Counted from the first letter of the whole stretch, positions 11,608 to 47,443 are shown. The stretch: DNA of 63,630 nucleotides, filler included, from Rhizaria sp. SCN 62-66 (GCA_001724265.1; 3 parts of 3 records of this genome joined end to end with filler, not necessarily neighbours in it); one strand, 5' to 3'. The notes: generated by a model not told the origin, from the letters alone. Made by a program: numbers and translations.

Positions 11608-12125
11608 CTGGCGGCGGCGTTAGTTGGCAAAACAAGTAGGCCTGTCTCCTTTGGCGATTGTAACTGTTCGACAGAAAACCTTGACTGGAGCGACATTAAA
11701 GGAGAGAAAGACACGTTGGTGAGTGACTATAACACAATACATACGCGAATATACACATAAACCCGGTGTGTTGCAATCCAGCGAGCATATCTCTCGTGAT
11801 TCGTTCGAATATAATCAAGTGAGCGTTGGGGCGAACGTTGACGGAGGTCGTCACTGGAGGCGATACAAATTAGTTATTTCCCAATAAACCTGATCGTCAA
11901 ATAGGAACTCGATATATTTGATAACAGATTCTATAAAGCAAACACATTGTACTATTATTATACCTCACAAAGAAGTCATAATGACGACTTTCAGACGTGC
12001 TTTCTGAGACTACCACTAACGCAGATCTCTCACACACTGTGAGTCGTGACCCCTACAGCTGACCTCACCCACAACAACCTTCACTCGCGCAGTGCGTCGC
12101 TGCCCGGCCTGGACCCGCTCTTAAC

Positions 12126-15100
12126 ATGCTGTCCTCGCTTGCCGCGCGGCGTTTGCGCCTGATGCGCGCGCCTCTGCGCAGCTTTCCGCGCATGGCCACC
12201 GGGACTCGGCTCTTCTCGTCCGCAACCCCGGCGGGCTCGGCTGGCGCCGCCTCTGCGCCGCCCGACCTGGTGACGATGCAGTGCCCGGTTCCGATTCCCG
12301 CGGACGCGCAGCGCGCGCTGGACGCGCTGCGCGAGGCCGCCGAGCTGCACTGTCCCGGTCTGGAGCTGCGCGTCGCGGGCGGCTGGGTGCGTGACCTGCT
12401 GCGGCTGGCGCCGGAGTTCCGCTACGAGCATAACGGCGCCCGCGACGCGCTGCCGGAGGAGTACTTTGACTGCTTACGTGACGCCGACGCCGCAGCGCTG
12501 CTCGCGCAGGCCGAGGCCGAGATGATCACCGCGCGCGCCAATCATGAGAGCGGTGCAAGTGGCTGCTAGGACGACGACAGTGAACCGCCCCTGTACCCGC
12601 CACTGCCGCCTGACGCGACGCACGACGAGCTCATGGCCGCGTCTCTCTCCTTGCACCCCGCCTCGGATTCCGCCGCTGCCGCTGCGGTTGCTGCAGCTCT
12701 GCGCGCCGCGAGAGAGCGCGTGCCCCGGTCCGCGCTGCGCTTCCCCCGCGCGCCGCCGTGCCCCGCCGTTGACGTCTCCGCCCTATGCGCGCATTCCGCG
12801 ACCTCTGCGTTTACAGCGGCTGCGTGTGGACTGGGCGACGTGGACGTTGCGCTCAGCTCTATGACGGGACAGGCCTTCCTGCCGCATCTCGCAGCGTACG
12901 CCGCCGCGCGCGGGCTGCCGTGCCGCATGTCGACGGTCGAGTCGGACGCGGCGACGAGCCGTCACCTGGCCACGTGCCGCGGTTCCTTCGCGGGCTTTGA
13001 CGTCGATCTGGTGAACCTGCGCAGCGAGACCTACGCGGCTGACGCCGCGCACCGCGTGCCGACTGCGGCCGCCATCGGGACCCCGCGCGAGGACGCGCTG
13101 CGCCGCGACTTCACCGCCAACGCGCTCTTCCTCAACCTCCACACCGGGCTCGTCGAGGACTGGCACGGTGGCGCGGGCCTCGCGGACCTGCGCGCGGGCG
13201 TGCTGCGGACACCGCTGCCGCCACTGCAGACCTTTGCTGACGACCCGCTGCGCGTGCTGCGCGTCGTCCGCTTCGCAGCGCGCCTCGGCTTCCTTCCCGC
13301 GCCGGGACTCGCCGCCGCGGCCGCGACGCCTGCGGTACGCCGCGCGCTGGCCCGCAAGGTCTCGCGCGAGCGCGTGGGCATCGAGCTCGCCAAGGCGCTC
13401 GAGGCGCCCGCAGGCAACCTCGCCTACGCGCTCGCGCTGCTGCGCGCGTTGGGCACTGTGGACGCGGTCGTGCCGCGCGCGGCCGTGCGTCGCTTGGCCG
13501 CCGCAGTGGTCGCTGCAGAGGGCGCGGGCTCCGGCAAGAAAGTGAAGGCTGCGCCGACCTCACCGTCGCCCTCCACAGCGACAGCTGAAGGCACGGCAGC
13601 TGCTGCTTCCCCCGCAGGCGCCTCTGCCGCGCCGCCGGGCGACAACACCGAGGATCTGCTGGCCGCCGCGGGGCCGGCCGGCGTGGCGCGCGCGCTGCAG
13701 TCGGCGCCCAGCAAGCGGCTGCACCGGCTGGCCATGCTGCCGGGCGTGTCGGCGCCACCGCCGGGCGCGCGGCCCGCGTGGCGGCGGCGGCAGTGGGCGC
13801 GCGTTGAGGCCGTGGCCGCCGCGGTCGAGGCCGAGCTGGCCGCGTGGCAGCGAGACGACGCGGCGCTGCGCGCGCTGCTGCCGGTCACCGCGGCCACGCG
13901 CAGCGCGGCCGTGCTCGCGGCCATGGCGGACCCGCTCGTCGTTGACTACGCCGCACTACTCACAAACTTCCAGCAGACGCAGACTCAGGCGTAGACACAG
14001 ACACAGACGGCACGCGGCGCGGTCGACGACAACGCCGCTGCGCTGGCCGCACTGGGTCTACCGGCTGCGTTCCCGCTGCCCGTGCCGTGGTGGCGGCCCG
14101 CGCCCGCGCGTTCGCCGACGGCGCTGCACGCGCTGCACGCGCTGCTGCCGCCGTTCCTCGCGTCACCGCCGCCGCTGGGCGCGCTGCCCGCCGACGTTAC
14201 CGAGGGCCACGCCGCGCTTGCGCAGTCTCTTGCCCGCGCAGCCGCGCTCGCCGATGTCGGAGTTAGCAGTCAGGGCGCGGCTCGCATCATCACGGCGCCG
14301 GCGCGCAGGGGCGTGCGCGTGGCCGTGGCCGACGCGGCGCAGTTCTCCGGACTTGGCGCCATGGCTACGGGCGCGGCGGTGGGCGCGAGCGCGACGGCGA
14401 CGGCGAGCGCGACTGCGGACGCTGTGACGCCGCTCCGCGCAGTGGCGACGCTCGCCGTCAACGGCGCGCTGCGGCGCCCGCTGGCTGACGGCGACGCCGC
14501 CGCGCGCGCCGCGCAGGGCGGGGCCTGGCTCGCCGACACGGTTCCTGCCTGGGCCGCCGAGGTGGCTCGCGCGCGCGATGCGAGCGTGAACAACGCTGGC
14601 GGCGCTCAGGCGGTGGAGCAGCAGTCGGAAACGCTGTGGGGCCGCGCGCTGTCGCAGGCGCGCGCACTGAGGGCCGCGGGCAGTTTGTCCGCCTGGCGCG
14701 CGTCATCAGCGCGCAACGAGACGGGAGCAAGCGCGACTACGACCTCCGATGACAGCAGTGTTATGCACGCGTTGTTCACGGGCATCGCCGCCTGCGAGCG
14801 CGCGCGCGCCGCCTCCGAGTCCGCCTCGGCCGCCGCGCGCTCCGCCGCCAGCGTCGCGACGGCGGTCTCGCGCAAGGTCGACGCCCCGCGCCGCGCCGCG
14901 CTCGACGCCGCCGCGGCGGCCGCGCGCGCCGACGCTGACGCCGCGGCCGCCGTTCACGCCGCCGCGGAGCGCGCCGCGTTTGCGGGCGCCGTGCTGGAGA
15001 CTGCGCTGCCCGCGGAGCTCATGGCGGCCGCCGCGCTGCTGCGCGGCGTCGGCGCGGAGGGGCTTCCGGCCGCCGCGGCGCTCGCCGTCGCGGCTACTGG

Positions 15101-15533
15101 CGTTGGCAGGACCAGGGGCGGCGGCGGCGGCGGCGCGGTGAACGTGGCGGATGCGAAAGTGTGCACTGACAGCGGGCTGCGGGACACACTTCAGCGCGGA
15201 GCTGTGCGGAGGGAGGACATCAATGCACTGCTGCGCGAGCTCGACGAGACGGGGCTGCTTGCTCTGGCGCGGGAGGCTGGCCCCGCCCCAGCCTCCAGTG
15301 AGGTAGCGGTTGCAGACGGCGTTTCCGTTCCCGGAGCCGCTGGCAAGGACGGTGTCGCGATCGTGGCCGCCGTGGGCGCTGCGGTCCGCACGGCGGGCTG
15401 GACCGGGGCCACACGCGCGGACGTCGCTTTCGCCGTGCAGGGCGTCAGCGACGTGATGTCCGTGCTGGCCGCGGTGCTGCCACGGTTTGACGCGTCGGAG
15501 GCGCTCGAGGACGTCGCGGGCTGTCTTCGGTGA
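12126..15533 (+). CDS. CCA1: Class II tRNA nucleotidyltransferase (CCA-adding enzyme), 1135 aa if TAGs at 12567-12569 and 13992-13994 are read as sense; likely mitochondrial presequence
   Basis: Track ORFs at 12126, 12633 and 14082 share one frame and are separated only by single TAGs. Motifs RVAGGWVRD, GDVDVAL, VNLRSETY, EDALRRDFTANALF, DDPLRVLRVVRFAARL and KVSRERVGIEL; Arg/Leu/Ser-rich, acid-free N-terminus; ends TGA. Confidence 0.85.
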
Positions 15534-16069
15534 GAAAATCGCGATGACCCTGTTTAACACGGTTTCGCGGGTTTCTCCGCGGTATATATTTAAGTCAATT
15601 ATTTATTTTGAAATATGTTATATAGTTCTACTAGGGATATTGCATACACTAGTTAAATTTCAAATCACGTGAACATCTACCGATTTTCAAGTTGTTTCAT
15701 GCCAAGGCGATGCAAGAACTGGTGCACAGTTTTTCCGCTATCGGTTGGTGGGAGGTCAGTCAGCCACCTGACTGAGCGCGAAACACCCGTCGATTGCCAT
15801 CCTCTCGCCTTCTTCACTGCATCCTTACGAGAACGTGTGATTGAAATTGGGTAATTTGCACACTCTTATTGTACTGATATTTAATTTTCAGCCTCGGATT
15901 ATGACATCATATTCCGCATATCAACTCCAAACATCTGGCAGATGTTTGACTAGGGTCTCCCTAACTGGCACTCTCACGCGATTCAAAACGCTTCATCTTC
16001 CTTCGCTGCGATCTGTCTTACCATCTATCCCCGGTTTTCCCCGCATGACATCTACTTAAATACGTAGTC

Positions 16070-17899
16070 ATGTCGTCCAAGGCCGCGACCTCGTCGCGCT
16101 CTGGCCGCTCTTCTGCCACTGGCCGTAGTCGCGCCGTGTCCCAGTCCCCTGCTCGCGCTCCCGCCGCCCGCGGCCGTAGCCAGAGCCGCGCGCGCCCCGC
16201 CGCCCGCGCCACTGAGCCCGCATCCGAGGACGAGGAGGAGGCCCCTAAGAAGCGTGCTTCCCGTGCCAAGTCCCCCGCGCGCGCCAAGTCGCCCGCCCGC
16301 GCTAAGTCGCCCGCCCGCGGCAAGTCGCAGGCCCGCGCTAAGTCCCCTGCGCCGGCCAAGAAGTCTTCCGCCAAGGCCAAGTCCTCGGCCAAGTCCAAGT
16401 CGCCCGCGCGCAAGCCCGCGTCGCGCTCCTCTGCAGCTGCGAAGAAGGACGAGTCCGAGTCCGAGTCCGAGTCCGAGGCCGAGGAGGCTCCTAAGAAGCC
16501 CGCGGCCAAGAAGAGCTCCACCAAGGGCGCCGCGCCCGCAAAGTCGGCCTCGGGCAAGAAGGCCGCCGAGCCGGCCCCGCGCCGCTCGCGCCGCTCTATG
16601 GGCCGCGCCGTCGATGAGGAGGAGGAGGAGTCCGAGGCTGAGGCCGAGAAGCCCGCCCCCAAGAAGTCTTCCTCCAGCAAGTCTGAGGAGCCCTCGAAGC
16701 GCTCGTCGTCGACCGCGCGCACCGCCTCGCGCTCCGGCCGCACGTCCAAGGCCGGCGAGGTCATTGCCGCCATCAACGCCGTCTCCCGCTCCTCGCGCTC
16801 CTCCGCCGCTGCCGCCGAGTCCCCCGCCGCCGCCGCCGCCGCGGCCGAGGGCACTGACGAGGTTCCGGCCGAGGTCGACTCGTCCGCCGGCGTACTCGAC
16901 GCCAAGGAGGCCCCCTTCGCCGTCACCTGCGCCTCCGCGGGCTGGTTTACGCTCGCGGCCGTGCTGGGCTACATTGCCCAGGTCGTCGTCCTCCTCTCGC
17001 TGTCGCCCGCCGCCAAGAACCTCTTCCGCCACTGCGCTGCCTGCTGCCTGCCCGCGCGCGTGATCGAGCGCATCGTCGCGCCCGTGTATTCGCCGCTCGA
17101 GCTCACCGTTGTTGTCGCCATGCTCCACGTCTTCGCCACCTTCGCGCTCAAGCACGGCGCCGCCGTCGCGAACCCCGGCTCGCGCTTCGCCCAGCGCGTC
17201 GCCGTCGTGCTCTCGCGCGCGCTCGCGGGCGTCTTCGCTGCCTGCATCTTTGTTCACCACATGCGTCACGCCGACCCCACCGCCGCCTCGGCCGCGCAGG
17301 CGCTCTTTGTCTACTCGCTCGGTTTCGCCGTCCAGGACCTCGTCGCCAACTTCTGCATCTCGTCCAACGCCAACAAGGCCGAGGCCGTCATCTCCGTCGC
17401 CGCGCTCAGCTACCTCGTCTTCTTCGCGCCCTCCGCCGCCGTCGCCGCCGCTGCCGCTGCCGCTCCCGTCGCCGCTCCCGCTGCCGCTGGTGCCGCTGGT
17501 GCTGGTGCTGCTGCCGCCGCCGCCGCCGCTGCTGCTGCCGCAAAGGCCAATGCCGTCTCCGTCGCCGCGCCCGCGCTGATCGTCAAGGCCAACGTGCCCG
17601 TGTTCGTGGTGCGCGCGCTGCAGGCCGTGCTGCTGGGCCTTGTGCTCGTGGGCTCCGTCGCCTCGGGCAACAAGTCCGCCGTCGGCCGCGCCGTCTCGGC
17701 CGCGTCCATCGCGCTGGGCTGGATCTACCTCGTCGGTTCGCTCGCGTCCGTCGTGTACATCGCCTACGTCGACTTCGTTGTCCACGGCGCCACCGTCCTC
17801 GCCTCCGGCTGCGCCACCGCCGCCACCGGCTCCGCACTCGCCGTGCTCGCCGTCCTCAGCGCGCTCAACTACGCTGACGGCTTCTTCATCGGCAAGTAA
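16070..17899 (+). CDS. Multi-pass membrane protein with a long basic Ser/Arg/Lys/Ala-rich (histone H1-like) N-terminal half
   Basis: 609-aa ORF with strong codon bias; RAKSPA repeats, then about 7 hydrophobic segments from roughly aa 290; stop TAA. Confidence 0.8.
   Translation: MSSKAATSSRSGRSSATGRSRAVSQSPARAPAARGRSQSRARPAARATEPASEDEEEAPKKRASRAKSPARAKSPARAKSPARGKSQARAKSPAPAKKSSAKAKSSAKSKSPARKPASRSSAAAKKDESESESESEAEEAPKKPAAKKSSTKGAAPAKSASGKKAAEPAPRRSRRSMGRAVDEEEEESEAEAEKPAPKKSSSSKSEEPSKRSSSTARTASRSGRTSKAGEVIAAINAVSRSSRSSAAAAESPAAAAAAAEGTDEVPAEVDSSAGVLDAKEAPFAVTCASAGWFTLAAVLGYIAQVVVLLSLSPAAKNLFRHCAACCLPARVIERIVAPVYSPLELTVVVAMLHVFATFALKHGAAVANPGSRFAQRVAVVLSRALAGVFAACIFVHHMRHADPTAASAAQALFVYSLGFAVQDLVANFCISSNANKAEAVISVAALSYLVFFAPSAAVAAAAAAAPVAAPAAAGAAGAGAAAAAAAAAAAAKANAVSVAAPALIVKANVPVFVVRALQAVLLGLVLVGSVASGNKSAVGRAVSAASIALGWIYLVGSLASVVYIAYVDFVVHGATVLASGCATAATGSALAVLAVLSALNYADGFFIGK
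16261..16350 (+). repeat. Coding tandem repeat of about 5 x 18 bp (RAKSPA units)
   Basis: Translation RAKSPARAKSPARAKSPARGKSQARAKSPA. Confidence 0.85.
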
Positions 17900-18647: not shown

Positions 18648-20614
18648 TTAGGGCTTGGTGAGCGACATCGACAGTGACATTGCAAGCGACGGCGACCGCG
18701 AGCGTCCCCGGCCACCAACGTTGGCTCCCGACTCAACCCCAGCCTGAATGTTGCTCCCAGCGGCGGCGTCCTCCTCGTCGGCGTCTGCGCTCGCACTAAA
18801 GTCGTCGCAGCCATCGCCATGCTGACTGTACTAGTCGGAGTAGTCGTTGATGTGGATCTCCTCGTGCGAGACGTCCTCGGAGACGATGTCGCCAGTCTGC
18901 ACGCGCACCGCAGTCGCCGCAAACAGCACTGGGGGGCCTTGGTCTGCCATATTATGCGCCGGCGCAGCGTCTTGCGCGCGCGTTAGCGTTGCGCTAGTGT
19001 TGGCGTCAGCGGGAGCGTCGTAAAACTCAGGCGACGTTGCACCTGTGATCGCGTTCGTGTTGAACGCGTTGTTCACGTTGGCGGGCGAGGGCGGGCCGCG
19101 CGGATGCGGGGGCGTGGCCTGGCCGCGGCCGATCCACTATTGGTGCGGCGAGACCAGCTCATCGTCACCGTCCGCGTCGGCGTTGTGTACGTTCTTCACG
19201 GCAAGAGCGAGCTGGCGCTACTACTCGTGGCGCTCTTGGAGCCCCGCGAGAGGAAGCACAGGCACTGCGACAGCGGCGCGGCCGTGGCCCGCCTGAAACT
19301 GTGAGTGGAGTTGACTGGGCGGAGGAAAGGAGCTCTCCGGGCTCGTCAACACCTCGACGTCGTCGAGCTCGCCCGCAAGCTCAGCGTCATCGGGATGCGC
19401 GGCCTCAACACCGGCATTCCCAGCAGAGTGGCGCACATCGTCTTGTGCAGCGTTGTCCTCGAAATCGGCCTCGTAGTCGTACTCGTTGCCGTTATCAGCG
19501 AAACCCGCGTCATCGTCGTCGTTGGCGCCGAGAGGGCCACTCGCTACGTTGGGCACAGAGAGTGCGCTCACGCCACGGTCGTCAGTGTAGCCTGCACCGT
19601 CTTCTGCCTCAACGGCTGCAGCGTTCGCGGAGTCCACATTTTGCGTGCTCTGCGCCTACGTGACCGGCTCATGCACACCGACGGCGGCGTGGGCGTCGCC
19701 GTTGGGGTGGGTGTCGTAGTCGTCGTTGCTGTTGAACAGGTTGCTAACGAAGGCCGCGGCGCCGTCGCCGTTGCTATGGTCGTAGTTCCGACCGTCGCGC
19801 GCCTCAGCGCTCTGCGCGCCGGCCTCCGCCCCAGCCCTCGCCTCGGCCTCATCCTGGGCCTACGCGTCGTCGATAGTGCTGTGGTGGTCCACGGCCGTGT
19901 GGAAGGCGTTCTGCGCGCTCACGCTCACCTAGACGCCCGTGTACTCGGCCTCAACGTCAGCACGGTCATCGTCGTCGTTGCCATCGTTCTCGACCGTGCT
20001 GATAGCTTCCCCATCAACGGCTCCAACACCAGCGTCAACATCAGCGTCGGCGTCGACATCGTCGTCGTGCTCGCCGTCGTCCTCGTCGTCGGGCTCGACC
20101 GTGTGCCACCCGCCGGCGCTGCCGTTGCCGGCGCTGCCGCCGGTGCCGAGGCGCGAGCGCGAGTACGACACTGACGCCGACGACGGGGAGTTGTTCAGCG
20201 CCGCCGCAACCGCGGTCGAGGCGTCGCCCGTGCCCACAGACAGGCGCGTGCGCGAGCCGTGCGCGGCCGCGGATGCGGCGGCGGCGGCCTCGGCGGCAGC
20301 CGTGGCGGCGGCGACAGCGGCGGCAACAGCGGCCGAGAGCGAGGGCCGCTGCAGCCCCTGGTGGAAGCGCGGCGCGGGCGGCGAGTTGAGCGGCGACGGC
20401 GGCTCAAAGTCGGCACTAGCGGCAGCGGCGTCGCCGCTAGCGGGCACGGAGACGTCCAGACCCTTGAGTGCGGGGGCAGACTCGGCAGGCGCGGCAGCGG
20501 AGGCAGAGTCATTCGACGCAGGCTCGGGCACGACCGACGCGAGCACTGCGGCGACAGAAGCAGCAGCAGCGGCGGCAATGGCGGCGTCCTCGACAGACGC
20601 ACTCTGCTGCTGCT

Positions 20615-20647
<33 letters not shown>

Positions 20648-23555
20648 TCTCATGCTGCTGCGGCTGCTGTTGGGGCTGCGGCTGCGCGCGCACTGCGGCG
20701 AGCGCTGCGGGCACCGGCGCCGCGGCAGCCGCAGCAGGCGCGGGCGTGCTGGGCGCGGCCGCCGTCGTCGCTGCGGAGCCCAACGCGGACTGCGACGCAG
20801 GCAGGCCCGCAGCGGCGGTGCTGTGCGCGGCGGCCGCGGCGCTCGCAGCGGTGGACGGCGCGCCGCGGGCGGACTGCGGGTACTGGCGCTGCTGTTTCTG
20901 CGCAGACGCAGGCGCGGCCCCGATCGTAGCGGCCGGCGCAGGGGTGTACGCATGCTGCTGCTGCTGTTGCTGTTGCGGTTGCGGCGGCTGGCGGTTGGCA
21001 GACACAGGCGAGTCGAACGCGTAGTGCGGCGAGTTCTGCTGCGGTTGCTGCTGTTGTTGGTTGGCGTGCGCCACAGCCCCGTCGTCGGCGCTGGGCGGCT
21101 TATACTGCGGCCAGTCGCCGGACCCGCCGAAAACGCTGCCATCACCCGCGATCGTCACAGGCGCGGTCGCCGCGGAAGCACGCGACTGCTGCTGCTGCTG
21201 CTGCTGCTGCAGCGGGTGCTGTTGCGGACCGGGCAGAGGCAGCGGTAGCGGCAGCGGCTGCGTGTCGAAAGACGCAGAGTACGAGTAGTCGCCGGCGTTG
21301 GGAGCCGGGGCTGCGGGGTGGTTCGGGCTGAAGCCGCCACTGTAGCTGTAGCCGTTGCCGTGGCCGAACCCAGCTCTTCCGCCCTGCTGCTGTTGCTGCT
21401 GCTGTTGCTGTTGCTGTTGCGAGTTGGCCAGCTGCTCCTCGAGCTCCACGATGCGGCGCACCGCGGCGGAGCGCAGCGCCTCGTACGCGCGCGTCACGGT
21501 CGCCTCGCCCTCGGGCGCTGCAGACGCGGACGTGGACACCGTCGCAGACGAGGCCGCCGCGTGCGGCGCGTGCTGGGCCGCGTGCGGCATGTGCTGGGCC
21601 GGGACCGGGGCGGCGACAGCGGCTGCGGCGGCGGGGAGGCGCCAGTGGCTGTAGCGGTCCTCGGGCGACTGCAGCGGCTCGCCGCGCGCGGACCGTGGCG
21701 TGGCCGATGCCGGGCTGGCCGAAGAGGCCGCGGGCGCGAACGCGGTCAGCGACGCGTGCGTGGGCGCGTAGGTGTACGGCGCGGGCCTGGGCGGGCTGGC
21801 GCCGTGCATCGCGCGAAGCTTGTGCTCCATGTGCGCGAGCTGGCCCCGCGCGGCCGCGGCCTCGGCCGTCGCGGCATCGGCGCGCGCGGCGGCGGCGGCG
21901 GCGGCGCGGTCGGCGTCGTCGGCGCGGCGCTCCCACGCGGCGGCCGTGGCGCCGCAGCGTTCCAGCTCGTCGACCACGGCGCGCGTCTGCCCGGCCCACC
22001 CGGCGGCCTCGGCGCGCGCGCGGGAGAGCTCCTCGAACAGCTCCGCGGCGCGTGCGTCGGCGGCGCGCGCGCGGTCCGCGACGCCCGCCATGGCGCGCTG
22101 CGCGGCGAAGGCGGCTTCGTCGTTGCGCCGCTCCGTAGCCTCGCGCCGCAGCCGCTCCTCGACCAGCGCGGCCTCACCCGCGGCCGCGCGTGCGCTCGCG
22201 TCGCCGGCCTCGCGCGCCAGCGCCGCGGCGCGGGTCTCGGCCGCCTCCAGCGCCGCGGCCAGCACCCCGCAGCGCGCGGCCGCGGCCTCGGCCTCAGAGG
22301 CCGCAGAGCGCACGGCGGAGCACCAGCTGTTCTCCGCCGCGGCCGTCGCGGTCGCGGCCGAGGTCGCGGCGTCGGCAGCAAGCGCGCCCGCTGCGGCCTC
22401 GGCGGCGGCGCAGCGAGCCTCGGCGGCCAGACAGCGGCGCTCGGCGGCCTCGGCGGCCTCGGAGAGCGCGGCACGCTGCTGCGTCAGCAGCGACGCCTTC
22501 TGCACCAGCGCGCCCGTCTCGGCGCTGCGCTCAGCCAGCGCGCGCGACAGCAGCTGGCAGCGCGCGAACAGCTCGCGCTCCAGCGGCGATGACAGCGCCG
22601 CAGCCAGCGGGCCCGCGGTCTGTGCGCTCTCGCCAGGTGTGGCGCTGCTGCGCCCGGGCGACAGCGCGGTCGCGGAGCCCGCGCCGGCGACGGGCGCGTG
22701 TAGCGCGAGCGACAGCGGGGCCAGCTTAGCGGTCAGCGCCACGGCGCTCAGCCCGGCGTTCGCATCCCCGGCAGCGCTCTCGACGTCCTTGGCGGCGGCT
22801 GCGGCGGCGGCCGCGGCCTCAGCGGCGGCGGCAGCGGCGGCGGCGGCGGCCTCGAGCTCGTCCTTGAGCGCTGCGCGCTCGGCCTCGAGCATCGCCACAC
22901 GGCCCGCGGCCTCGGCGGCGCTCGCGGCCACGCGCGCCTCGGCGGCCTCCTCCGCGGCCGCCAGCTCAGCCTCAGCGGCGGCGCTCGCGGCGCGCGCGGC
23001 GGCGGCCTCGGCGCGCGCGTCCTCAGCGGCGGCCTGCGCTGCGGCCGCGGCAGCACTTAGCTTAGCCTCGCGCTCAGCGGCGTGGGCGGCCTCGACACGG
23101 GCGTCCTCAGCCGCGGCCTCAGCGGCGGCTTCGGCGTCCGCGGCGGCGGCCTCAGCAGCCTCCGCGGCGTCGGCCTCGGCCCTGCGCGCGGCGGCGGCCT
23201 CGAGCTCGGCGAGCCTGCGCGCATCGGCGAGCTGCTCGCGCACCGCGGCCGTCTCGGCCTTGGCACCCGCCACGGCCTGCAGCGCCGCCGCGGCGTCCCC
23301 GCGCGCGGCCGCAGCCTCAGCGCGCGCCTTGATCGTCTCCTCGGCGGCCTCGGCGGCGACGGCCTCGAGGCTCTCGGCGGCCGCGTGCGCCTCGGCCAGC
23401 GCCCGCGCGGCCGCCGCAGCCGCCGCGTCGCGCGCGGACACGGCGTCGGACAGGGAGAGCACGCGGTCCGCCTGCTGGCCGGCCGCCCCGCGCAGCGCGT
23501 CCAGGTCGCGCACGGCCGCGTCGCCCGCCGCGCGCGCGGACTCGGCGGCGGCCTC
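18648..23555 (-). CDS. Large coiled-coil, low-complexity protein, 5'-truncated at the gap, with 7 in-frame TAG codons in its C-terminal 428 codons
   Basis: Track ORFs 19929-23513, 19221-19637 and 18831-19076 share one frame. The only stops between the gap and TAA (18648-18650) are TAGs at 19929, 19860, 19656, 19221, 19218, 19137 and 18831 (lowest coordinate of each). Ala/Glu heptad region, polyQ tracts, acidic tail. Confidence 0.8.
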
Positions 23556-23556
23556 G

Positions 23557-23656
23557 NNNNNNNNNNNNNNNNNNNNNNNNNNNNNNNNNNNNNNNNNNNN
23601 TTAATTAATTAANNNNNNNNNNNNNNNNNNNNNNNNNNNNNNNNNNNNNNNNNNNN
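23557..23656. other. Artificial assembly linker (44 N + TTAATTAATTAA + 44 N)
   Basis: Exactly 100 nt; the 12-mer puts TAA in all six frames; identical to the linker at 47191-47290. Confidence 0.97.
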
Positions 23657-28155: not shown

Positions 28156-28595
28156 TGTTTCTCACCTCCTGGGTTTGAGCAAACGACTCCTCACTTCGGC
28201 CCCTCATCCTCACTCGGTCGCCCCACAACCCAAACAGCCCACAGCCCATGGGGGAAAATTAAGCCGCTGCTCACAGTCGCTCGCTTGATTCCCGCCCAAA
28301 GTTGATCGACTGGGCAAGGGAGCAATCTTGATAGACTCGTGCATCATGTTGTTTAGTAATATGGTGTGCACACCCGCAAGAAAGAATTATTATTACGAGT
28401 TTGAGTGCGTTCTAGTTGTTTCCCTATGATAGTTATCTTTCAATTCTTGCTAGAGTGATTATACCTGCGGTGAATTCAAAGTCTGCAATGCCATAAAGAG
28501 CTCGTGCCACACCACGAAACTCAGTCCTCACGACTGCGTCGCCCACATCATATCCGCTCACTTTTTTCGTGTTTTTTTTGCAAGATCAGATCATT

Positions 28596-30380
<1,785 letters not shown>

Positions 30381-30991
30381 GAGAGCTGCGTGAGTGAGCG
30401 AGCGACTTGAACAAGTGCGAGGTGACACACTCATTAGTGCGAGCTGGCCAGAGATAATGACGCAGATCAGTTATCGAGTCATTTTTGAATGACTGAAATT
30501 AATTGTAATGTTCTTCAAATTTTTCCACTGAATAAACAAGTTCGTATTTTTCATCTTTTCCCTCTTTTGCGTGACAATGTGAGTGCTCACAGTCATCTTA
30601 CGAAGGAGCAACAAACAAATGCAATGAGACCTCGATAAAGTCTAAGGCTTTACTCCATAAGACCTCGATAAAATTGAGTGTGACTAAGTTATTCAATATA
30701 TCATAGTGACGATTATTATTTAAAAGATGTACAATGTCACATGAAAGAGTCCAGAGACGCATAATATCTTGTTAATCAGCATCATTGTGAGTTTGAGCAC
30801 ACTTGAACAAGAATAAGGATATTGATCGATAGGTCGATTCAAACTTTAGATTACACTTAAAGAACAAAATAACTAATACCATTAAGCATGTACCTACATC
30901 GACCTTTTCTACCACGCTCTTACCGCGCACTATGACGCAACAGGAGCAAGTCGACTTAAAGAGCCACAAACCTCTAGAGAGGCATCGCTTC

Positions 30992-33900
30992 ATGTCACTC
31001 AAATTCTTACCCCGCGCACGGCTTGCCGCATGGGCGTTCTCAGCAGCCGCAACGCTGTTGCTTCTAGTAACGCCGTCAGCCGCATTGTCGGCTGATCAGT
31101 CGTATGAGCTCTTCTTCGAACCCAAGTCTTCGTACGACGACGGCACGGGCGTCTTCGCACTGGGTTACAACTCACCTTACCGCTCGCTGCGCCATGTTGT
31201 GGACTCCGACACGCCCGACGCGCGCATCTCCTTCGAGGCCGTGCCGGTAATTCCGCGCGCGGCGACGCTGCACAGCTGGTCGTGGGCCGCCGTGACTGAC
31301 ACCACGACGCTGCCCGCATGGCTCGACTTCGTCGCGGGCTGGGCCGGCTCGCCCGCCTTCGCGCTCCAGTTCAACGGCGCGGCCTCCGTCGCCGCGGGCG
31401 CGGACCCCGAGCCCGTGGTGCTAAAGCTGGGCGGCGTCGTGCACTACTCGCACGGGCCCGAGCGCTACCTGGAACGGGAGGAGCGTGTGCTTTACCTCAC
31501 CGTCCACATGCACGTGCGCAAGTCCATCGCCTCGCGCGCCACCATCCTTGCAGACTACTTCGTGCAGCAGCCCACAGAGACGGCTGCGGGCGCGCCACTG
31601 TACCCTTTCCAGTTGCGCTCCGCCACGACACCCGTGCCGTCCTTCGTGGCCGAGGCCGGCGAGACGTACAGCTTCCCCTGCGGGGGCTCGCTGGCCGACC
31701 TCTCGGGCGCATGTATCCTCGGCACGGCCGACGCCGCTGACGGCACGCAGACCCCAATGTGGCTTGGCGCGGGAGCCGTGCTGTCGGTTGACACGGGCGT
31801 GCTGCGGGTGCGCGCGCCGCTGGCCGGCTGGGGCGCGATCGTGGTGCAGTCGGGCGCGACGCTGGTGCTCGAGGGCGGCACCGACACAACGCCCTTTGCG
31901 CTCATCTCCGAGGAACGCGTGCCTGCGCTCGTCAACCACGGGCAAGTGTACGTTTCGAAGGGCGTGTTTCAGCTGCATGGCACCGCCATGCTAGGCTTCG
32001 GAACCGTCTTTGTGGCCGCCAACGCCACGATGGAGCTGTCTCCGCGCCAAGAAGCTGCGTTTGGCGACGCGCCTGTGTCGACGACAAACCGCGCTGTCGT
32101 GCTTGACGTGCGCGGCACAGTCAACATTCTCTCGGGCACGGTGCACTTTCCGCGCGCGGTCATCTTCGTCGGGTTGGGCAAGCTCAACGTGGGCATGGCC
32201 GCTGCAGCGATGCTCTCGGGACCCACACGCCACGTGCTCGGCGGGCTGCAGACGGGCGCGGGCAACATTGCATCCACGGGCGGCGTCAACGCCGTCGCCG
32301 CTGTGGTCTCGGGCGCGCTTACTGTGCAGTCCAGCGCCGCACTGCTCGTCGGCGGCGGACTGCGGCTGCAGGGGCTGGGCGCCCTGACGGTGCTCGAGGA
32401 CGCGATCGTAACCGTGGACGTGGCGTGGGCCGACCCCGTGCTGCTGCCGTCTACGGGCATTGTTGCCACGGGCCCCGCAGCGGAGCGACCGGCGCCGGGC
32501 GTCACCGTGCGCGGCGGCCGCCTGCTGCTCATCAAGGGCGGGCTCACGGCTGCGACAGGCATCACCGTCGACGGGACCAACGGCTCTCTCGAAGTCGACA
32601 CGGACGGCTTCCTGCACCTCTCCGCAGCGGGCGCGAGCAACGTGCTGGGCGGCGCGGGCACGGTGAGCCGCGGCGACGTAACTCTGCTGGCGGGCGCGAG
32701 CGTCGACTTTGCGGCCCCTATCACGTCGACCACGCACGTGCGCGCGCTGGACGCCGCGTCCGTGATCTCGTTCTCATCGCCTGTGCTGAGCGTGCTATCG
32801 CGGCCGCCTGGCACTCGCGTGGCCTCAGGGCTCAGCAGCGGCGGCACCACGGCCGGCGTCACGGGGCTTGCAACCAACCCCACGCACCTGTTCGGGCTGT
32901 TCACGCCGGGCACGCTGCTGCTGCGCGACGGCGCGCGCGTGCGGCTGCTCGCCTTAAACCCTTCTGCAGCCGACGCCTCGCTGCTCGAGCGCGCGCGCTT
33001 CTTCGCGGCCGCGCTCTACAACGCTGGCACGCTTGAGCTGACCGAGAGTGCCGAGCTTGAGACCGGCGCTGCACTGCAGACCTTTGAGCCGCGCTCGCTG
33101 GCGATTAGCTCATCAGCCGCGGCAGACTTTACGGACGGCCAGATTGACGCTAAGACGGGAGCCAGCTCTTACTGGGCGCCGTCGCTGGCGCCGCGGTCCC
33201 CGCTGGCAGTGTTGCGCGTGGTACCTGAGGACCGCTACCAGTACCAGGCCACGGGCGACGCCGCGGGCACCATCGCGCAGACGCTCACGCAGGCCGACTT
33301 TACGCCCGCGCCGATCACCATCGCGCGCGGCGCGCTGGCGGGCGCGCGCGCGGGCTACGCGGCGACGCCCGTGGTCGTGGGCCCGCGCGCGTGGGCGTCC
33401 CCGGGCGCGGAGGAGCCGGTCGCTGCGCTGGCGCGGTTGGACCGCGAGGGCCGCATTGTCGGCGGCGCCTGGGTCGCGGCGGCGGCGGCGCAAAGCGTGG
33501 GCATCCTGCGCGCGCAGGCGCTCACGCTGAGCGCCGGCAGCGCGCTCAAGGTCGACGTTGTCGGCGCGGGCCCCGCTGGCGTCGGGTACGACCAGGTCGT
33601 CGTCGACGAAGACATGGTGATTGCGTCGGGCGTTGCGCTCAACCTCACGACAACGTTCGAGGCCTTCGTACGTCAGGCCGCGTCCGTGACCACGCTGCGC
33701 GCAGTCGAGTCGCGCCGCTTTGCAACGCTCTCGGATGCGGAGCTGCCCGCCGGAGTCGTTGCTGGCGGTGCTGTCCGTACACGTGCCGCTGAGGCCGCCA
33801 CAGTCGAGTCTGCCGCAGAGGTGCGCCAGTGGATTGCAACCGTCGCAGTCAGCACCACGAGTAGCGCGCGCAGCTCTAGCAGCGGCAGCCTGAGTGCAAG

Positions 33901-34546
33901 TTCCGGCTCCGGCTCGGGCGCGACCGCGCAGGAGACCACCACGGTGACTGTGCGCCCGCTGGCGAGCGCTGGCGTGGGCCGGCCACGCGGCGCCGAGGTG
34001 CTGCGCGTGCCCATTGTGCTTGCGGGTAGCGTGAGCGGCCGCTTCGACACTGTCAACGTGCTCTGGCGCCTCGCGTCGGGCTCGCAGAGCGGCTCCAGCT
34101 CCACGCCAGCTGACAGCGTGTACGTCGTGCAAAATGCCGTCACAGACATGACTGAGCGCTTCCAGGCCCGCATTAACGCCCTCGCAAGCACCGCCGGCAG
34201 CAGCAACACTGACAGCAGCAGCAGCAGCGACGACAGTGGCAGCGCGACTAGCAGCGGCGGCGTAACCGTGAGCACGCTGGGCGCGTCCGCAGGCGAGCGC
34301 GTGTGGGACTTCGGGCTCGAGTACAGCGAGGCCGCAGTAGTGCTGGTGGCGTGGGAGAACGGCGCCATGACCTCGGCCGCGGCGCCCACGAGCCGGCCCG
34401 CTTCCAGTGCGATTGCGGGCGTTGCGCTGTGGGCTATTGCCGCGGCGGGGGCGGCGCTCGCGGCTGCGGCGTGGACCGCGATGGGCACGGAGCGGGTTCA
34501 GGGGCAGTGGCGGCGGAGAAGGCTGCCGGCGGTCAAGGCTGATTAA
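30992..34546 (+). CDS. Type I cell-surface protein: signal peptide, Gly/Val/Thr-rich beta-helix-like ectodomain, C-terminal transmembrane helix
   Basis: Signal-like MSLKFLPRARLAAWAFSAAATLLLLVTPSAALS from ATG 30992; repeated beta-strand/Gly units; hydrophobic IAGVALWAIAAAGAALAAAAW followed by a basic tail; stop TAA. Confidence 0.8.
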   Translation: MSLKFLPRARLAAWAFSAAATLLLLVTPSAALSADQSYELFFEPKSSYDDGTGVFALGYNSPYRSLRHVVDSDTPDARISFEAVPVIPRAATLHSWSWAAVTDTTTLPAWLDFVAGWAGSPAFALQFNGAASVAAGADPEPVVLKLGGVVHYSHGPERYLEREERVLYLTVHMHVRKSIASRATILADYFVQQPTETAAGAPLYPFQLRSATTPVPSFVAEAGETYSFPCGGSLADLSGACILGTADAADGTQTPMWLGAGAVLSVDTGVLRVRAPLAGWGAIVVQSGATLVLEGGTDTTPFALISEERVPALVNHGQVYVSKGVFQLHGTAMLGFGTVFVAANATMELSPRQEAAFGDAPVSTTNRAVVLDVRGTVNILSGTVHFPRAVIFVGLGKLNVGMAAAAMLSGPTRHVLGGLQTGAGNIASTGGVNAVAAVVSGALTVQSSAALLVGGGLRLQGLGALTVLEDAIVTVDVAWADPVLLPSTGIVATGPAAERPAPGVTVRGGRLLLIKGGLTAATGITVDGTNGSLEVDTDGFLHLSAAGASNVLGGAGTVSRGDVTLLAGASVDFAAPITSTTHVRALDAASVISFSSPVLSVLSRPPGTRVASGLSSGGTTAGVTGLATNPTHLFGLFTPGTLLLRDGARVRLLALNPSAADASLLERARFFAAALYNAGTLELTESAELETGAALQTFEPRSLAISSSAAADFTDGQIDAKTGASSYWAPSLAPRSPLAVLRVVPEDRYQYQATGDAAGTIAQTLTQADFTPAPITIARGALAGARAGYAATPVVVGPRAWASPGAEEPVAALARLDREGRIVGGAWVAAAAAQSVGILRAQALTLSAGSALKVDVVGAGPAGVGYDQVVVDEDMVIASGVALNLTTTFEAFVRQAASVTTLRAVESRRFATLSDAELPAGVVAGGAVRTRAAEAATVESAAEVRQWIATVAVSTTSSARSSSSGSLSASSGSGSGATAQETTTVTVRPLASAGVGRPRGAEVLRVPIVLAGSVSGRFDTVNVLWRLASGSQSGSSSTPADSVYVVQNAVTDMTERFQARINALASTAGSSNTDSSSSSDDSGSATSSGGVTVSTLGASAGERVWDFGLEYSEAAVVLVAWENGAMTSAAAPTSRPASSAIAGVALWAIAAAGAALAAAAWTAMGTERVQGQWRRRRLPAVKAD

Positions 34547-37236: not shown

Positions 37237-40200
37237 TCATGCCTGGAAGAGGAACTGCAGGTCCTCATGCGAGAGCTCCGCAAAGGCAGCGATGCGCCCG
37301 TCGACAGTGCCCTGGAATACAAGGCGCTTCTTCTCCTGCAGCTCCACCATGCGCTCCTCGATCGAGCCCTTGACGACAAAGCGCACGGCCGTGACGGGCC
37401 GCGTCTGGCCGATGCGGTGCGAGCGCTGCACGGCCTGGTCCTCCACCGCCGGGTTCCACCACGGCTCGAGCGTGTACACGTGCGACGCCGCCTGCAGGTT
37501 CAGCCCTTCGCCGCCCGCGCGCAGCGACATGACGACGACGCGCACGGCCGGGTCGTGCTTGAACGCGGCGAGGATCGACCGGCGCTCGGCGATGGGCTGC
37601 GAGCCGACGAACTTGACGCACACGACGCCCGCGCGGCGTAGCGCCCATTCGACGAGGTCGATCATCATGGCGAACTGCGAGAAGACAATGGCCTTGTTGG
37701 CCGGGTCCGCGCGGCACATCTCAAGAATGTCGTCGACCAGTGCGCGCAGCTTCGCGGAGGGCGCGAATGACGCCGTGTCCACGTGCTGCATGATGCTGCG
37801 CCGGCCCAGCGTGACCTTGAATGACCCGCCGGCATTGGCGACAGCAGTGGCGGCCGTGGCGGCAGCGGCTGCGGCCATCGAGTCCGGGTCCTGTTCATCG
37901 TCACCCATAACACTCGCACCCGCACTAGCGCTCGTACCCGAGCTGGAGCTGTTATTATTAGCGGGCGCGACGTAGACGTCGATGGGGACGATCTTCTCGA
38001 TCTTTGCGCGGCACATGGTGCAGGAGCGCGACGCCAACTGCTTGGTGCACGCCATGCACGTCTGCGAGTGCCCGCACGGCACCAGCACTGCGTCGCGCGG
38101 CCGGTCCAGACACACCACGCACAACCCCACGGGCCCGCTGCCGCCGCCGCCGTCATCGCCGCCGCCGCCGTCGCCGCCCTCGGTGGCGGGCTCGAGGCCA
38201 CGGAGGTCGATGGCCAGCACCAGCGCCTGGAAACACACGGGACACGTGCCCGCAGCGGCAGCGGACGCGGAGGCAGAGGCAGCGACGGCGCCGCGCTTCT
38301 TGGCGCCTGCCTTGCCCTTGCCCTTGCCCTTGGCGCTCGCTGAAGACGAGCTGTTGTCATCGTCATCATTGCCGTTGTCTTCGTCGTGCTCGTGGTCGTG
38401 GTCGCCGTCATTAGCGGCTGCGGCCGCTGCGTTGGCCGCGGCGGCCTCGGTAATGTACCGGTGGATGCAGTCGCGGTGGAAGGTGTGCCGGCACTTGGTC
38501 ACCGCGGGGATGCCCTCGATGTCCTCGAAGCACAGCCCACACACGTCGCCCAGGCCCTGCCGCAGCCGCGCGCCCGCGGTCAGCAGCAGACTCTCGTCGC
38601 CGTCGCCGTCGGCGTCCCCGTCAGCGTCCGCGCCTTCGGGCGCGCCGCGCTTTTGCCCCTTGCCCTTGCTCTTTACACCGGCCTTGCCCTTAGGCGCGTC
38701 CGCGCCCGCGTCAGCGCCAGCAGCAGCGCCAGCAGCAGCGCCAGCAGCAGCGCCAGCAGCAGCCGCAGCGGCAGAGGCGTCAGCGCCGTCAGCAGTACCG
38801 TCAGCAGCCGCAGCGGCGGCAGCAGCCTTCTTCTTGGCCGCCGCGCCGGCCTTTTTGCCGCCCTTGGCCGAAGTCGCGCCAGCGCCAGCGTCAGCGCCGT
38901 CGCTGCCACCAGTGCCCGCGCTGAGCGCGAGCGCCTGCTGGTGCGCTGCGTCGCTGCCAGTCTGCGCGACGGCCTCGTACTGGCTGCGCGCTGCGCCGGC
39001 CTGCCGCGCGCGCACCGTGGCGCCGTGCACGACGAGCAGCGGGTGGTCCACCGCCTGCCGCAGCCGCGCCAGCAGCTCGAAGATGTGCGCGAAGTTGTGC
39101 AGCAGCGTGCCCGCGGCCACGAACGAGTTGAACTGCACGCACGACTGCGAGTAGATGGCGCGGTAAAAGTCCTCCTCGCTCTCGTCCATGACGACCTCGC
39201 GCGTGCGCACAGTCAGCGGCGGCAGCCGCAAGTCCGCGGCGCGCTCGGCCTTGTTGCGGCGCAGCATCGCCAGGTCCAGCACGTCGCGCTTGAGCCGCAG
39301 CAGCGCGCGCATGCCCTCGCCCGAGTGCCCGTAGCGCTGGATCGGGTTCACCACGAAGCGGTTGAAGTAGGAGTAGTGCTTCAGTGGCGCGTGCCCGCAC
39401 TCGGTGCAAAAGCGCGACTCGGCGCCGAAGCGCCAGCCAAAGGCGCGGCAGCGGCAGCCGTCGTGCGAGCAGAAGTATTCGGCCTGCGGGCGCATGCGAA
39501 GGAACCGGATGACTGCGTAGAGCTCGCCCACGCGGTTCTGCAGCGGCGTGCCCGACAGCGCCCACTTGAACCGCGAGCGCAGCGCGTACACGGCCTTGGC
39601 GGTCGACGACGTGCGCGACTTGATCTTGTGCGCCTCGTCCAGGATCACGCGCGCCCACTGCACGGCGTGCGGGGCCGAGCGGCTCACGTCGACGCCCTCC
39701 TCGTCCACCAGTGGCGCTGCGGCCGCCGACGCCGCGCGCCACGCCGCGGCCGCGGAGGCGGCGGCGGCCGCGGCAGACGGGCGCGGCGCGCGGCGCTTGC
39801 GGCCCGCGCCGTCCCCGCCGTCCTCGTCGTCGTCGTCGCTGTTGCGGTTCAGGGCGAGCGCCTTGTTCTTGGCGGCCACCGCGGCGGCGGCGGCGTCGTC
39901 GACCTTGCCCTTGGGCGTCGCAGCCTTCTTGCCAGGGCTCTTGCTGGCAGCAGCGCCCTTGCTCTTGCTCTTGGTTTTAGCACCATACTCCTCCTCCTCC
40001 TCCTCTTCGTCGTCGCTCTCGTCGCGCATGGAGCGACTCTTCGTCTTGGCCTTGGTGTTCTTGCCGCGGGCGCGTGATTTGGCGTCCGAGTCGGAGTCAA
40101 ACGCGGAGGAGGACGACGAGTCGGAGCTGAAGTCGTCCGATGCGCTGCCGCTGGCGTCGCTGTCAGAGAGACTGTACACCGAGGTAGAGTCGGAGTCTGA

Positions 40201-43200
40201 ACCCTTGCCCTTGCCCTTGCCGCGGCCCTTGGCCTGCGCCTTGCCCTTCGCTGGGCTCTTGACAGGGCTCTTGCTCTTAGCCTTAGCAGTCTTGGAAGGA
40301 CTCTTGGCAGCCGCCGCCTTGTTGCTTTCACTCTTGACGTCGCCGTTGTTCTTACCTTTGCTCTTGATATTGCTCTTGGTGACCGTGAACGCGTCGGGGT
40401 CAGACTCGGAGTCAGAGCTGAGCTCGATCGCGTCGTCGCCGTCCTTGCCAGCAGCAGCACTGGCGCTGGAGCTGGAGCTAGAGTTAGAGTTAGCACGGCG
40501 AGAAGGCTTGCTCGCAGCAGCCTTCGCCCCGGTGTCACCGTCTTCGTCATCGTCGTAGTCGACGTCGTTGACATCAGTCATCTCGATCTTGACGCGCGAG
40601 TGAGCGCCCGCGCCCGCGCCCGCGCTTGCACTGGCACTGGCGCTCGCACTCGAACTCGAGCTCGAGCTGGAGTTCTTGTTTGTGTTTGCGTCGTCATCAC
40701 CGTCATCATCGTCGTCATCGTCGTCCGACAGCGCGCGCGCACTCTTGCGCCCACGGCCCCTGCTCTTGCTCTTACTGCTCTCGCCGCCACCGCGCTGGGC
40801 CTTGTGCGCGGCCTCCTTGGTGGCGAAGCGCGACACAGGCACGCGGCCCGCGCTCGTCATGATGTCCTTGTAAATGTTCGTCAGCGTCGGCGGCGCGGCG
40901 CGGCGCGCGGGCGCAGGCATCGCGCTCGCACCTGCAGTGTCACGGTCATCATCGTTGTCATCAGCGTTGTCGTTGTTCGCCCTGGCGCTGGCGTCTTGCT
41001 CGGACTGCACGCGGTCCGCCGTCGCGCGTGCGACGGGGATGCCCAGCGCAAGCATGCCCTTGGCCATCGTGCGCGCGGACTGCTGCGCGCGGGCCTTGGG
41101 CGCGCCAGTGTTCGTGTCCTTGTCCTCACCCTTGCTCTTGGACTTACTCTTGCTCTTGGACTTGGTGTCCTTGCGTTTCTTGCCACGATTGTCGTCCTCC
41201 TCGTCGCTAGTGTCGACCACGAACGCGCTGCTGTCCGAGTCCGACACGTCAGAGTCTGAGCCATAGGATTCTGACTGCGACTGCGCCGCGGAGTCGGAGC
41301 CGGAACCGGAGCCAGCGCCAGCGGCGGCACCCTTCTTAGCGCGTTTGTTGAGCTTCTCGGAGCGACGCGCGCCGGGCCCGCAGAAGAACTTGAGGTGGGT
41401 GACGAGTACGCGCGGCAGGAAGCGGCGGCGGCAGTACTGGCACTGGACCTTGGCGGCCTCGGTGGCGGCGCGGTACTCGACCTCGAGCACGGGGTACGAG
41501 GTCAGCACGACGTCGTAGCTCTGCAGCTGCGCGGGCGACAGCGCGCCGCGCTGCGAGCCGTAGAAGAGGAGCACGCGCAGCGGCGGCAGCGGTAGGAGCC
41601 ACGAGAGGTCTGCGGCGTCGCCGCCCACGCCCGCGGCGGCGCAGGCGGCGGCACCGTCACCCGCGGGGGCCGCGACTAGCTCTGCGTCGCCGTCGTCGCC
41701 CGCGTCCGCGGCGAGCAGGCCGAGCTCCTCGCTCGCGCGCGCGCTCTCGCCGTCCTTTCCGCTCCTACCATTCTTGCTCTTGCCCTTGCCCTTGCAGCTG
41801 TGGCTGTGCGTGTGCTTTTTGTCGCAGCCACCGTCGTCGTCATCGTCGTCGTCGTTGTCATTGTCGCTGCCGCTACTGCTATCGCTATCATTGTCACTGC
41901 GGCTGCTCTTGCTCCTAGCGCTCTCCTGCGGCGGCGGCCGCTGCGGCGGAATGGCGACGAACGCGGTGGGCCGTTGCGACCACGGGAAGCGCTCACAGAC
42001 ACCCTCACCGTGATCGTGGTCGCCGCTGTCGTCGCCGTTGGCCGAGGCGTGGCTGTGTGCGGCGGCCAGCGCGGCGGCCGCGGCGGCGTCGGCGGCGGAC
42101 AGGCTGTTGCCGCCGCCGGGAGACATGAGTCCCCCAGCAGCGCTGCTAGCGCTGGCGCCGCCGTTAACGCTGCTGCTGTGGCTGCTGTTCTCGGCGTCGG
42201 CGTCGGCCTCGGCTTGCATGCGCGCGAGGAGCGCGGCCATGGCGACAGCGCTCACGGGCACGCCGTGCCAGACCAGTCCGCGCACGGGGTCCACGGGCCC
42301 AGCACTTACACCGACCTCGGCGGTACTTAGATCGCCCGACGCACTCGCGGCACTCGCACTAGCACTCGCAGCGGCGGCCGCAGCGGCGGCGGCGGTGGCG
42401 TTGGCTGCGGTCAGCGCGAGCGCGCCGGCCCTGTTGGCGGCGTCGGTGTCGACGAAGTGGTCGATCTCCTCGCGCCACTGCAGCACGGCGCTGGTGGGCG
42501 CCACGATCGCCGTTGGCGCCAGCGCGCGGCCGCCCGCTGCAGGCAGCAGCACGGGGAAGCACGCCGCGGGCGGCAGCGCGGCGGGGGCGGGCCCGCGGCG
42601 GCCGCCGGTGTGGTCGCGCCAGAGCCGCTCCCAGAGGCGGCGCGCGACGGAGCGGCGCCATGACACGAGCGTGCGGTTGCGGCGCGCGATGAGCAGGGAG
42701 AGCGCCTGGAGGGTCTTGCCCATGCCCATCTCGTCGGCCAGCACGCCGCCGCGCATGCCGCGCAGGCGGCACACCACAGCGGTGCTCGGGGCGCTCGCGC
42801 TCGCAGTCGCAGTCACGGGTGCCGCGACAGAGTCGGTGAGAGTTGCGGGGTTGGTGGGGGCGAGAGACGACGACACAGAAGAGTTGGGAGGCTTGTTATC
42901 TGTGTTATCTGTGTTGGTGCCAACGCTCTCCACCTTGTGACTCGCACTTGCGCTGTCATCAGCCTTGAGCTCCGTCTCGGTCTTGGTGCCGACATCCTTC
43001 GCGCTGGGCTCGTCCTTGACACTCTTCCCGGCGCTGCCAGCGCTGCCACTCCGCGCACCATCGCGGTCACCAGCGCCGCGTTCGGGCTTCACGGCGGCAC
43101 TGCTACTGCTGCTGGCGTCAACACCGCTTGTAAACGCGTCGGCATAGTGGTCGGCGGGCAGCCCCAGCGCCTCAGCCGCGGCCGAGGCGGCAGCGGCCGC

Positions 43201-47190: not shown

Positions 47191-47290
47191 NNNNNNNNNN
47201 NNNNNNNNNNNNNNNNNNNNNNNNNNNNNNNNNNTTAATTAATTAANNNNNNNNNNNNNNNNNNNNNNNNNNNNNNNNNNNNNNNNNNNN
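47191..47290. other. Artificial assembly linker (44 N + TTAATTAATTAA + 44 N)
   Basis: Same 100-nt structure as 23557-23656. Confidence 0.97.
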
Positions 47291-47443
47291 GACGCCGCCA
47301 AAAGCGCGGCCCGCGGCGGGCGCGGCCGGGGCGGCGCCGGGCGCGGCGCCGGGGCGGCGGACGGGCGCCGCCGCGCCGGACGAGGGAGCGCCGGGGCGCG
47401 ACGGGCCGCTCGAGGGAACGCCGGGGGGAACTCCGCGGCGCAT
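47291..47443 (-). CDS. Probable 5' end of a gene (MRRGVPPGVPSSGPSRPG...) running into the gap
   Basis: ATG at 47443 at the shift from AT-rich to GC-rich DNA; frame open to the gap; too short to identify. Confidence 0.45.

Follow-up and report, generated by a model that had tools for sequence, protein, structure and literature searches.

The coupling of UAA with UAG was long held to prevent reassignment of UAG alone. In the available portions of two reports, such a change is described from a handful of eukaryotic lineages (PMC5304391, PMC11687900). These portions give glutamine as the meaning of UAG in the nuclear code of Iotanema spirale, with 104 UAA and 15 UGA terminators (PMC5304391), and in the phyllopharyngean ciliates Hartmannula sinica and Trochilia petrani, which keep UAA and UGA as stops (PMC11687900). 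They give leucine as its meaning in the rhizarian exLh (PMC5304391) and in uncultivated phyllopharyngean ciliates (PMC11687900). Highly expressed genes of exLh use UAG less often, for which the authors propose less efficient decoding (PMC5304391).

The locus analyzed here lies in a stretch of 63,630 nucleotides from Rhizaria sp. SCN 62-66 (GCA_001724265.1), referred to below as the window. A gene predicted to encode a CCA-adding enzyme carries two in-frame TAG codons (TAG1 and TAG2), and a neighboring Ala/Gln-rich gene carries seven. We consider it probable that UAG is a sense codon that most likely specifies glutamine, that UAA and UGA are the stops, and that the CCA-adding enzyme is made as one protein of 1135 residues.

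The CCA-adding enzyme gene and its TAG codons

Under the standard code, the gene falls into three abutting open reading frames (ORFs) that share one frame (12063-12569, 12570-13994, and 13995-15533). With TAG read as sense, the same sequence is a single ORF of 1156 codons, and the best-scoring coding segment (12210-15521) runs across both TAG1 and TAG2. Sequence comparison and structural modeling predict that the product is a class II CCA-adding enzyme with the head-neck-body fold. The Pfam PolyA_pol head domain (PF01743) matched residues 290-361 with 53.1 bits (cut-off, 23), and the best nonself homologues were eukaryotic CCA-adding enzymes, with 48-56% identity over the core.

A preliminary description of the locus had placed the catalytic motif GGWVRD, the two TAG codons, and the catalytic DVD at the positions given in Table 1, all of which were right in both sequence and translation. 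It had also argued that a stop at TAG1 would part GGWVRD from DVD, which was borne out by a profile of 31 homologues that matched on both sides: upstream of TAG1, at LRVAGGWVRDLL (E 8.5e-07), and downstream of it, starting at DVD (E 1.5e-89). The enzyme motifs were intact, as had been claimed; all 16 columns that were invariant in a 41-sequence alignment were kept, and the further motifs RRD..NA, ED..G..DL, DDPLR.LR..RF, and SRER..E were present. A smaller alignment, of 15 sequences, contained 48 invariant columns. In an AlphaFold2 (AF2) model, residues 41-100 and 231-460 were folded together, with a predicted local distance difference test (pLDDT) of 74-98 (83-98 for residues 41-100), and confidence was low between residues 100 and 231 and for most of the sequence past residue 470. 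Structural matches to solved CCA-adding enzymes extended from model residue 47-51 to about residue 568 and included the Arabidopsis thaliana enzyme 9kma (Z 23.4, rmsd 2.6, 270 aligned, model range 51-568) and 3h38 (Z 24.8, rmsd 6.3, 280 aligned). Because the profile matches, the conserved residues, and the fold all span TAG1, the active site draws on sequence from both sides of this codon.

The head-domain motifs and invariant residues are shared with 9kma (PDB; sequence match, E 2.6e-38), as they are with the class II cca1 and cca2 entries 9ns2 and 9ns4. In the present protein, LRVAGGWVRDLL and DVD are separated by 144 residues, compared with 5 for the motif halves in 9kma; the protein is about twice the usual class II size, with a C-terminal half that had no significant match. 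Most of the sequence between the motif halves is a lineage-specific insert that was gapped in all 14 aligned homologues and was modeled with a pLDDT of 35-62 (AF2). TAG1 is inside this insert and thus lies between conserved motifs yet not at a conserved position. TAG2 lies in a hexanucleotide array, for which the preliminary description had assigned glutamine from the repeat. The place of TAG2 at a CAG position stood, but the assignment of the residue did not follow from it, since descent from CAG would also result from a fresh nonsense mutation or a missense reading.

The N terminus of the predicted protein is rich in Arg, Ser, and Leu and contains three in-frame ATG codons (M1, M13, and M23; 12126-12224, plus strand). 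This stretch resembles a targeting presequence that allows alternative starts, such as are known for yeast CCA1.

Coding signal, terminators, and recurrence

The codon model was trained on nine TAG-free genes of the window (9,348 codons). Over the 60 codons that follow each of the nine in-frame TAG codons, the coding score was +0.07 to +0.74 bits/codon, GC content was 0.63-0.77, and no TAA or TGA occurred. Behind all 16 terminators, the score was -0.12 to -0.87, GC content was 0.32-0.61, and mixed stops came next. Coding sequence in the window had a GC content of 0.65-0.80 and spacers one of 0.35-0.45, and GC content fell sharply within about 40 nucleotides (nt) of every stop, a good marker of gene ends. 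The terminators, a small sample of 16, comprised 10 TAA and 6 TGA codons and no TAG; with the two TAG-bearing genes left aside, 14 of 14 were TAA or TGA. TAA was thus the commonest terminator despite a coding GC content at third positions (GC3) of about 0.85. Within the insert of the CCA-adding enzyme, the frame of the gene scored +0.39 bits/codon before TAG1 and +0.12 after it, and the other five frames scored negative.

The seven TAG codons of the neighboring gene all fall within its last 427 codons, and its best-scoring coding segment (18720-23555) takes in all of them. The codon score was 0.44 before the first TAG and 0.44 after it, and the GC-poor spacer begins at the TAA terminator, not at any TAG. 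This tail (18651-19931, minus strand) had a GC content of 0.65 and a GC3 of 0.77 and contained 11 CAG, 7 CAA, and 7 TAG codons, two of the latter in tandem (19223-19218). Upstream of the tail, the gene contained 72 CAG, 12 CAA, and no TAG codons. By these measures, all internal to the sequence, it is well supported that UAG behaves as a sense codon, translated and not terminating.

Two other in-frame TAG codons, at 30830 (plus strand) and 44139 (minus strand), lie upstream of the first ATG of their genes (30797-34546 and 37237-44481, respectively); they are probably in 5' leaders and uninformative on the code.

Contigs from four sequencing runs were compared with the window, and statements on coverage refer to the contigs listed for these runs. 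Runs X3 and X4 belong to other studies, and X7 is a poly(A) RNA library. At 90% likeness, most matching contigs were foreign GC-rich sequence; uncovered parts, and zero poly(A) depth in intergenic bins, were not counted as evidence. TAG1 recurred in an X4 contig (12450-13290), and all seven TAG codons of the neighboring gene recurred in X3 and X4 contigs, with 0 differences in each case. A poly(A) contig from X7 (18955-19455) retained three TAG codons of the neighboring gene, unspliced and unedited, again with 0 differences.

A further X4 contig, over 17579-17793 at the 3' end of the gene at 16049-17899, showed 16 differences in 215 bases, and a diverged strain or relative is therefore present in the X4 sample. 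None of the contigs of this strain or relative spans any TAG site.

Table 1. Positions in the window of the two TAG-bearing genes and of the features within them
Feature	Position	Strand	Remarks
CCA-adding enzyme gene	12126-15533	+	1135 codons plus TGA, read through two TAG codons
GGWVRD, first half of catalytic motif A	12378-12395	+	residues 85-90; profile positions 36-59
Lineage-specific insert	12402-12827	+	residues 93-234, about 140 in length; separates the halves of motif A
TAG1	12567-12569	+	codon 148; in frame between GGWVRD and DVD
DVD, catalytic carboxylates of motif A	12837-12845	+	residues 238-240; D238 and D240 invariant in the 15- and 41-sequence alignments
Hexanucleotide (CAGACN) array	13973-14009	+	encodes (QT)n; Tandem Repeats Finder (TRF): 6-nt unit, 6.2 copies, consensus GCAGAC
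TAG2	13992-13994	+	codon 623; takes the place of CAG in one array unit; NFQQTQTQA*TQTQTARG
TGA terminator of the CCA-adding enzyme gene	15531-15533	+	GC content 0.74 before, 0.36 behind
Neighboring Ala/Gln-rich gene	18648-23556	-	5' end lost at contig edge; seven in-frame TAG codons; ends at TAA 18648-18650
Span of the seven TAG codons	18831-19931	-	first bases 19931, 19862, 19658, 19223, 19220, 19139, and 18833

The residue at UAG and alternative explanations

If UAG is sense and read as glutamine, the catalytic head would combine sequence that precedes TAG1 with sequence that follows it, and a disordered insert of about 140 residues would separate the GG loop from the DxD strand. Decoding would call for a tRNA with the anticodon CUA, probably derived from tRNA-Gln, that places glutamine at UAG, and eRF1 would no longer recognize this codon. 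Glutamine is the best guess for UAG, favored only indirectly, by codon context. CAG or CAA occurs within 3 codons of seven of the nine TAG codons; the share of codons with such a neighbor was 0.29-0.41 for glutamine codons themselves and at most 0.21 for the codons of every other residue.

Several observations weigh against this reading. None of the nine TAG codons falls in a conserved alignment column; of the earlier claim that TAG encodes glutamine, the part that makes TAG a sense codon agrees with every measure internal to the sequence, and the part that names the residue goes beyond them. The signs from glutamine context show CAG ancestry, not meaning, and a missense reading would look alike. 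No tRNA and no Rfam match was found in the 63.6-kb window, and eRF1 is not among its genes. The piece of the CCA-adding enzyme after TAG2 was colinear with the profile but not significantly so (positions 439-492, E 0.087), and its pLDDT was low. TAG2 was covered by none of the listed contigs of the four runs, and the poly(A) library may hold carried-over DNA. The spread of the codon is also uneven, with seven TAG codons in 427 codons of the neighboring gene, two in the 1135 codons of the CCA-adding enzyme gene, and none in the 9,348 codons of nine other genes. A fully neutral synonym for glutamine should be more evenly spread; the clumping would fit inefficient decoding or a meaning other than glutamine. 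Mutation of CpA to TpA of the kind seen in repeat-induced point mutation (RIP) was considered as a source of the clump and rejected, as the TpA/ApT ratio of the tail, 0.93, drops to about 0.68 (computed from rounded figures) without the seven TAG codons.

It is rather unlikely that UAG is sense with another residue, such as leucine, the TAG codons having arisen from CAG by C-to-T changes and survived where they are harmless. All nine lie in lineage-specific or low-complexity regions, where a missense reading would be tolerated, and the available parts of two papers describe codes in which UAG is leucine (PMC5304391, PMC11687900). Against this, CAG is one step from TAG and glutamine is the commonest precedent for a reassigned stop; TAG frequency in the tail of the neighboring gene parallels that of CAA, the other AT-ward synonym for glutamine; and no positive sign was seen for any residue but glutamine.

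A leaky or dual-meaning UAG stop, borne only in low-demand genes and in C-terminal tails, would account for the clumping, with seven TAG codons in the final quarter of a single gene and none in nine other genes, but we regard it as improbable. None of the 16 genes terminates at TAG, and TAG1 comes early, as the 148th of 1135 codons, in a gene with a function that eukaryotes need. A purine after a stop is a context of efficient termination, and purines follow five of the nine TAG codons and C follows one. The tandem pair of TAG codons in the neighboring gene would seldom be passable.

No more probable than a leaky stop is the standard code with a recent pseudogene in place of the CCA-adding enzyme gene, a neighbor truncated by nonsense changes, and a working CCA-adding enzyme gene elsewhere. 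In its favor, 68% of the possible single-step nonsense changes, given the codon content, lead to TAG, and, to judge by entry title, cca1 and cca2 chains have PDB entries of their own. That nine of nine stops would be TAG has nonetheless a probability of only about 0.03 (P ~0.03), and no frameshift, TAA, or TGA occurs in the 1135 plus 427 codons concerned. The codon score was undiminished past the TAG codons of the neighboring gene, and all invariant residues of the enzyme were kept. Seven CAG-to-TAG changes among the 25 glutamine codons of the tail would have had to occur without general decay or an excess of CpA-to-TpA changes, and identical TAG codons were recovered in samples from different years and studies.

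Removal or change of the TAG codons in RNA, by unconventional introns or by U-to-C editing, appears very improbable. An intron is the obvious rival at TAG1 because the insert leaves the motif halves so much farther apart than in 9kma; no homologue has this insert, and its exact excision would restore the usual spacing of motif A. An in-frame GT..AG pair (12478-12816; 339 nt) with a fair acceptor is available within it. Four introns of the organism were read, all of which start with GTACGT or GTACGC, end with CAG or TAG, and are GC-poor and pyrimidine-rich. In agreement with the preliminary description, which had seen no intron like the organism's others beside the TAG codons, no GC-poor, pyrimidine-rich segment was found between 12046 and 15519, and none of the in-frame GT..AG pairs enclosing TAG1 (13 pairs) or TAG2 (52 pairs) had a GTACG donor. 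The gene holds two GTACG sites, and GC content does not drop behind either of them. Within the insert, codon bias was in frame both before and after TAG1, and GC content was that of an exon. A contig from the poly(A) library (12798-13125) was colinear across the best-looking acceptor, at 12816, and no listed RNA contig spans TAG1 or TAG2. The poly(A) contig over the neighboring gene kept its three TAG codons, and nine separate in-frame excisions would be required in all.

Contig joints were given no weight because their sides were 20-31 letters long and their ends were not those of introns. X4 and X7 showed a loose end at 12437 that was preceded by GG, not AG, and whose 30 letters had no match in the window; it was therefore taken as part of a foreign contig.

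The window is made up of three joined contigs (1-23556, 23657-47190, and 47291-63630), as seen from linkers of the form N44-TTAATTAATTAA-N44, with stops in six frames, at 23557-23656 and 47191-47290; ORFs that touch the contig edges are cut. Least probable of all is an artifact of assembly or binning, for which this joining, and the place of TAG2 in a repeat where other assemblies break, could be cited, since TAG1 and the seven TAG codons of the neighboring gene recur with 0 differences in other runs, both TAG-bearing genes, with all nine in-frame TAG codons, are inside the first contig, far from the linkers, and relative codon usage among the three contigs correlates at 0.92-0.98.

The host and comparison with known codes

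The host is a eukaryote, because an intron of the GTACGT...CAG kind splits the thymidylate synthase (TS) domain of a fused DHFR-TS gene, with Pfam TS positions 2-73 and 79-266 in successive exons. This gene (28518-30380, plus strand) contains one such intron, at about 29594-29741. A gene for an ESCRT-II subunit contains two introns of the GTACGT or GTACGC kind. The best named matches of the CCA-adding enzyme and DHFR-TS were spread over brown and green algae, plants, fungi, and oomycetes, and a fused DHFR-TS presumably speaks against an opisthokont. The organism, which is uncultured, lies outside the ciliates, as its contigs carry many genes.

A search of a protein database, JGI proteins included, gave no relative of the CCA-adding enzyme above 56% identity and no full-length nonself match of DHFR-TS above 45%, its best being 45% identical. 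A scan of metagenomes with the full CCA-adding enzyme protein gave 74 pattern matches, none of them a relative, and a search for long orthologues (624-1987 residues) gave two matches, both to the core only. Metagenomes of bioreactors and wastewater contained words of the window, in 17 rows belonging to 9 studies; three of the rows held at least half of the words. A literature search, in which supplements were not covered, found no description of such an organism.

Inserts were also seen in a protein of 2298 residues (37237-44133, minus strand) that combines a PARP-type zinc finger, SNF2, Helicase_C, and two RING fingers, its domains being broken up by very long inserts rich in Ala, Ser, Asp, and Lys. 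Conserved proteins of this organism seem, as a rule, to contain big inserts.

The confinement of the nine TAG codons to unconstrained, low-complexity regions in two of about 16 genes suggests that decoding is inefficient or that the change is recent. The host may be a deep-branching eukaryote from wastewater reactors, with a GC-rich genome, few introns, and no close relative in the protein and metagenome collections searched, in which UAG came to mean glutamine separately from the changes in Iotanema and the ciliates and which is at an early or inefficient stage of this change; we regard this as an even call. UAG would still be confined to disordered inserts, repeats, and tails, and the enzyme that finishes tRNAs would nonetheless depend on its decoding.

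The code would be of a known type, with UAG alone reassigned, in a lineage that would be new for it. A further case, if true, would be an independent data point on the capture of stop codons, and its interest, which is real but moderate, lies in a very GC-rich genome, outside the ciliates, in which UAG is rare and limited to unconstrained sequence. Gene calling under the standard code cuts the proteins of this organism, as in the database entry for the CCA-adding enzyme gene, which is a fragment of 377 residues.

Condylostoma, karyorelicts, and Blastocrithidia resemble the window in having a stop codon inside genes, but in these organisms the same codon also ends genes, compared with 0 of 16 gene ends at TAG here. 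Iotanema, Hartmannula, and Trochilia are closer: like the window, they have UAG within reading frames but not as a terminator, and UAA is their most frequent stop. They differ in having hundreds of UAG codons, many at conserved glutamine positions, compared with nine TAG codons in two genes, all in unconstrained sequence, here. Unlike Iotanema and the ciliates, the organism of the window is GC-rich, as its GC3 indicates, with multigene contigs, a fused DHFR-TS, and no close relative in the databases searched. The codes of exLh and the uncultivated phyllopharyngeans, in which UAG is leucine, likewise resemble the window in the reassignment of UAG alone and in the dominance of UAA as a stop; they differ in that nothing here points to leucine: TAG2 stands for CAG in a repeat, and the TAG codons cluster with codons for glutamine.

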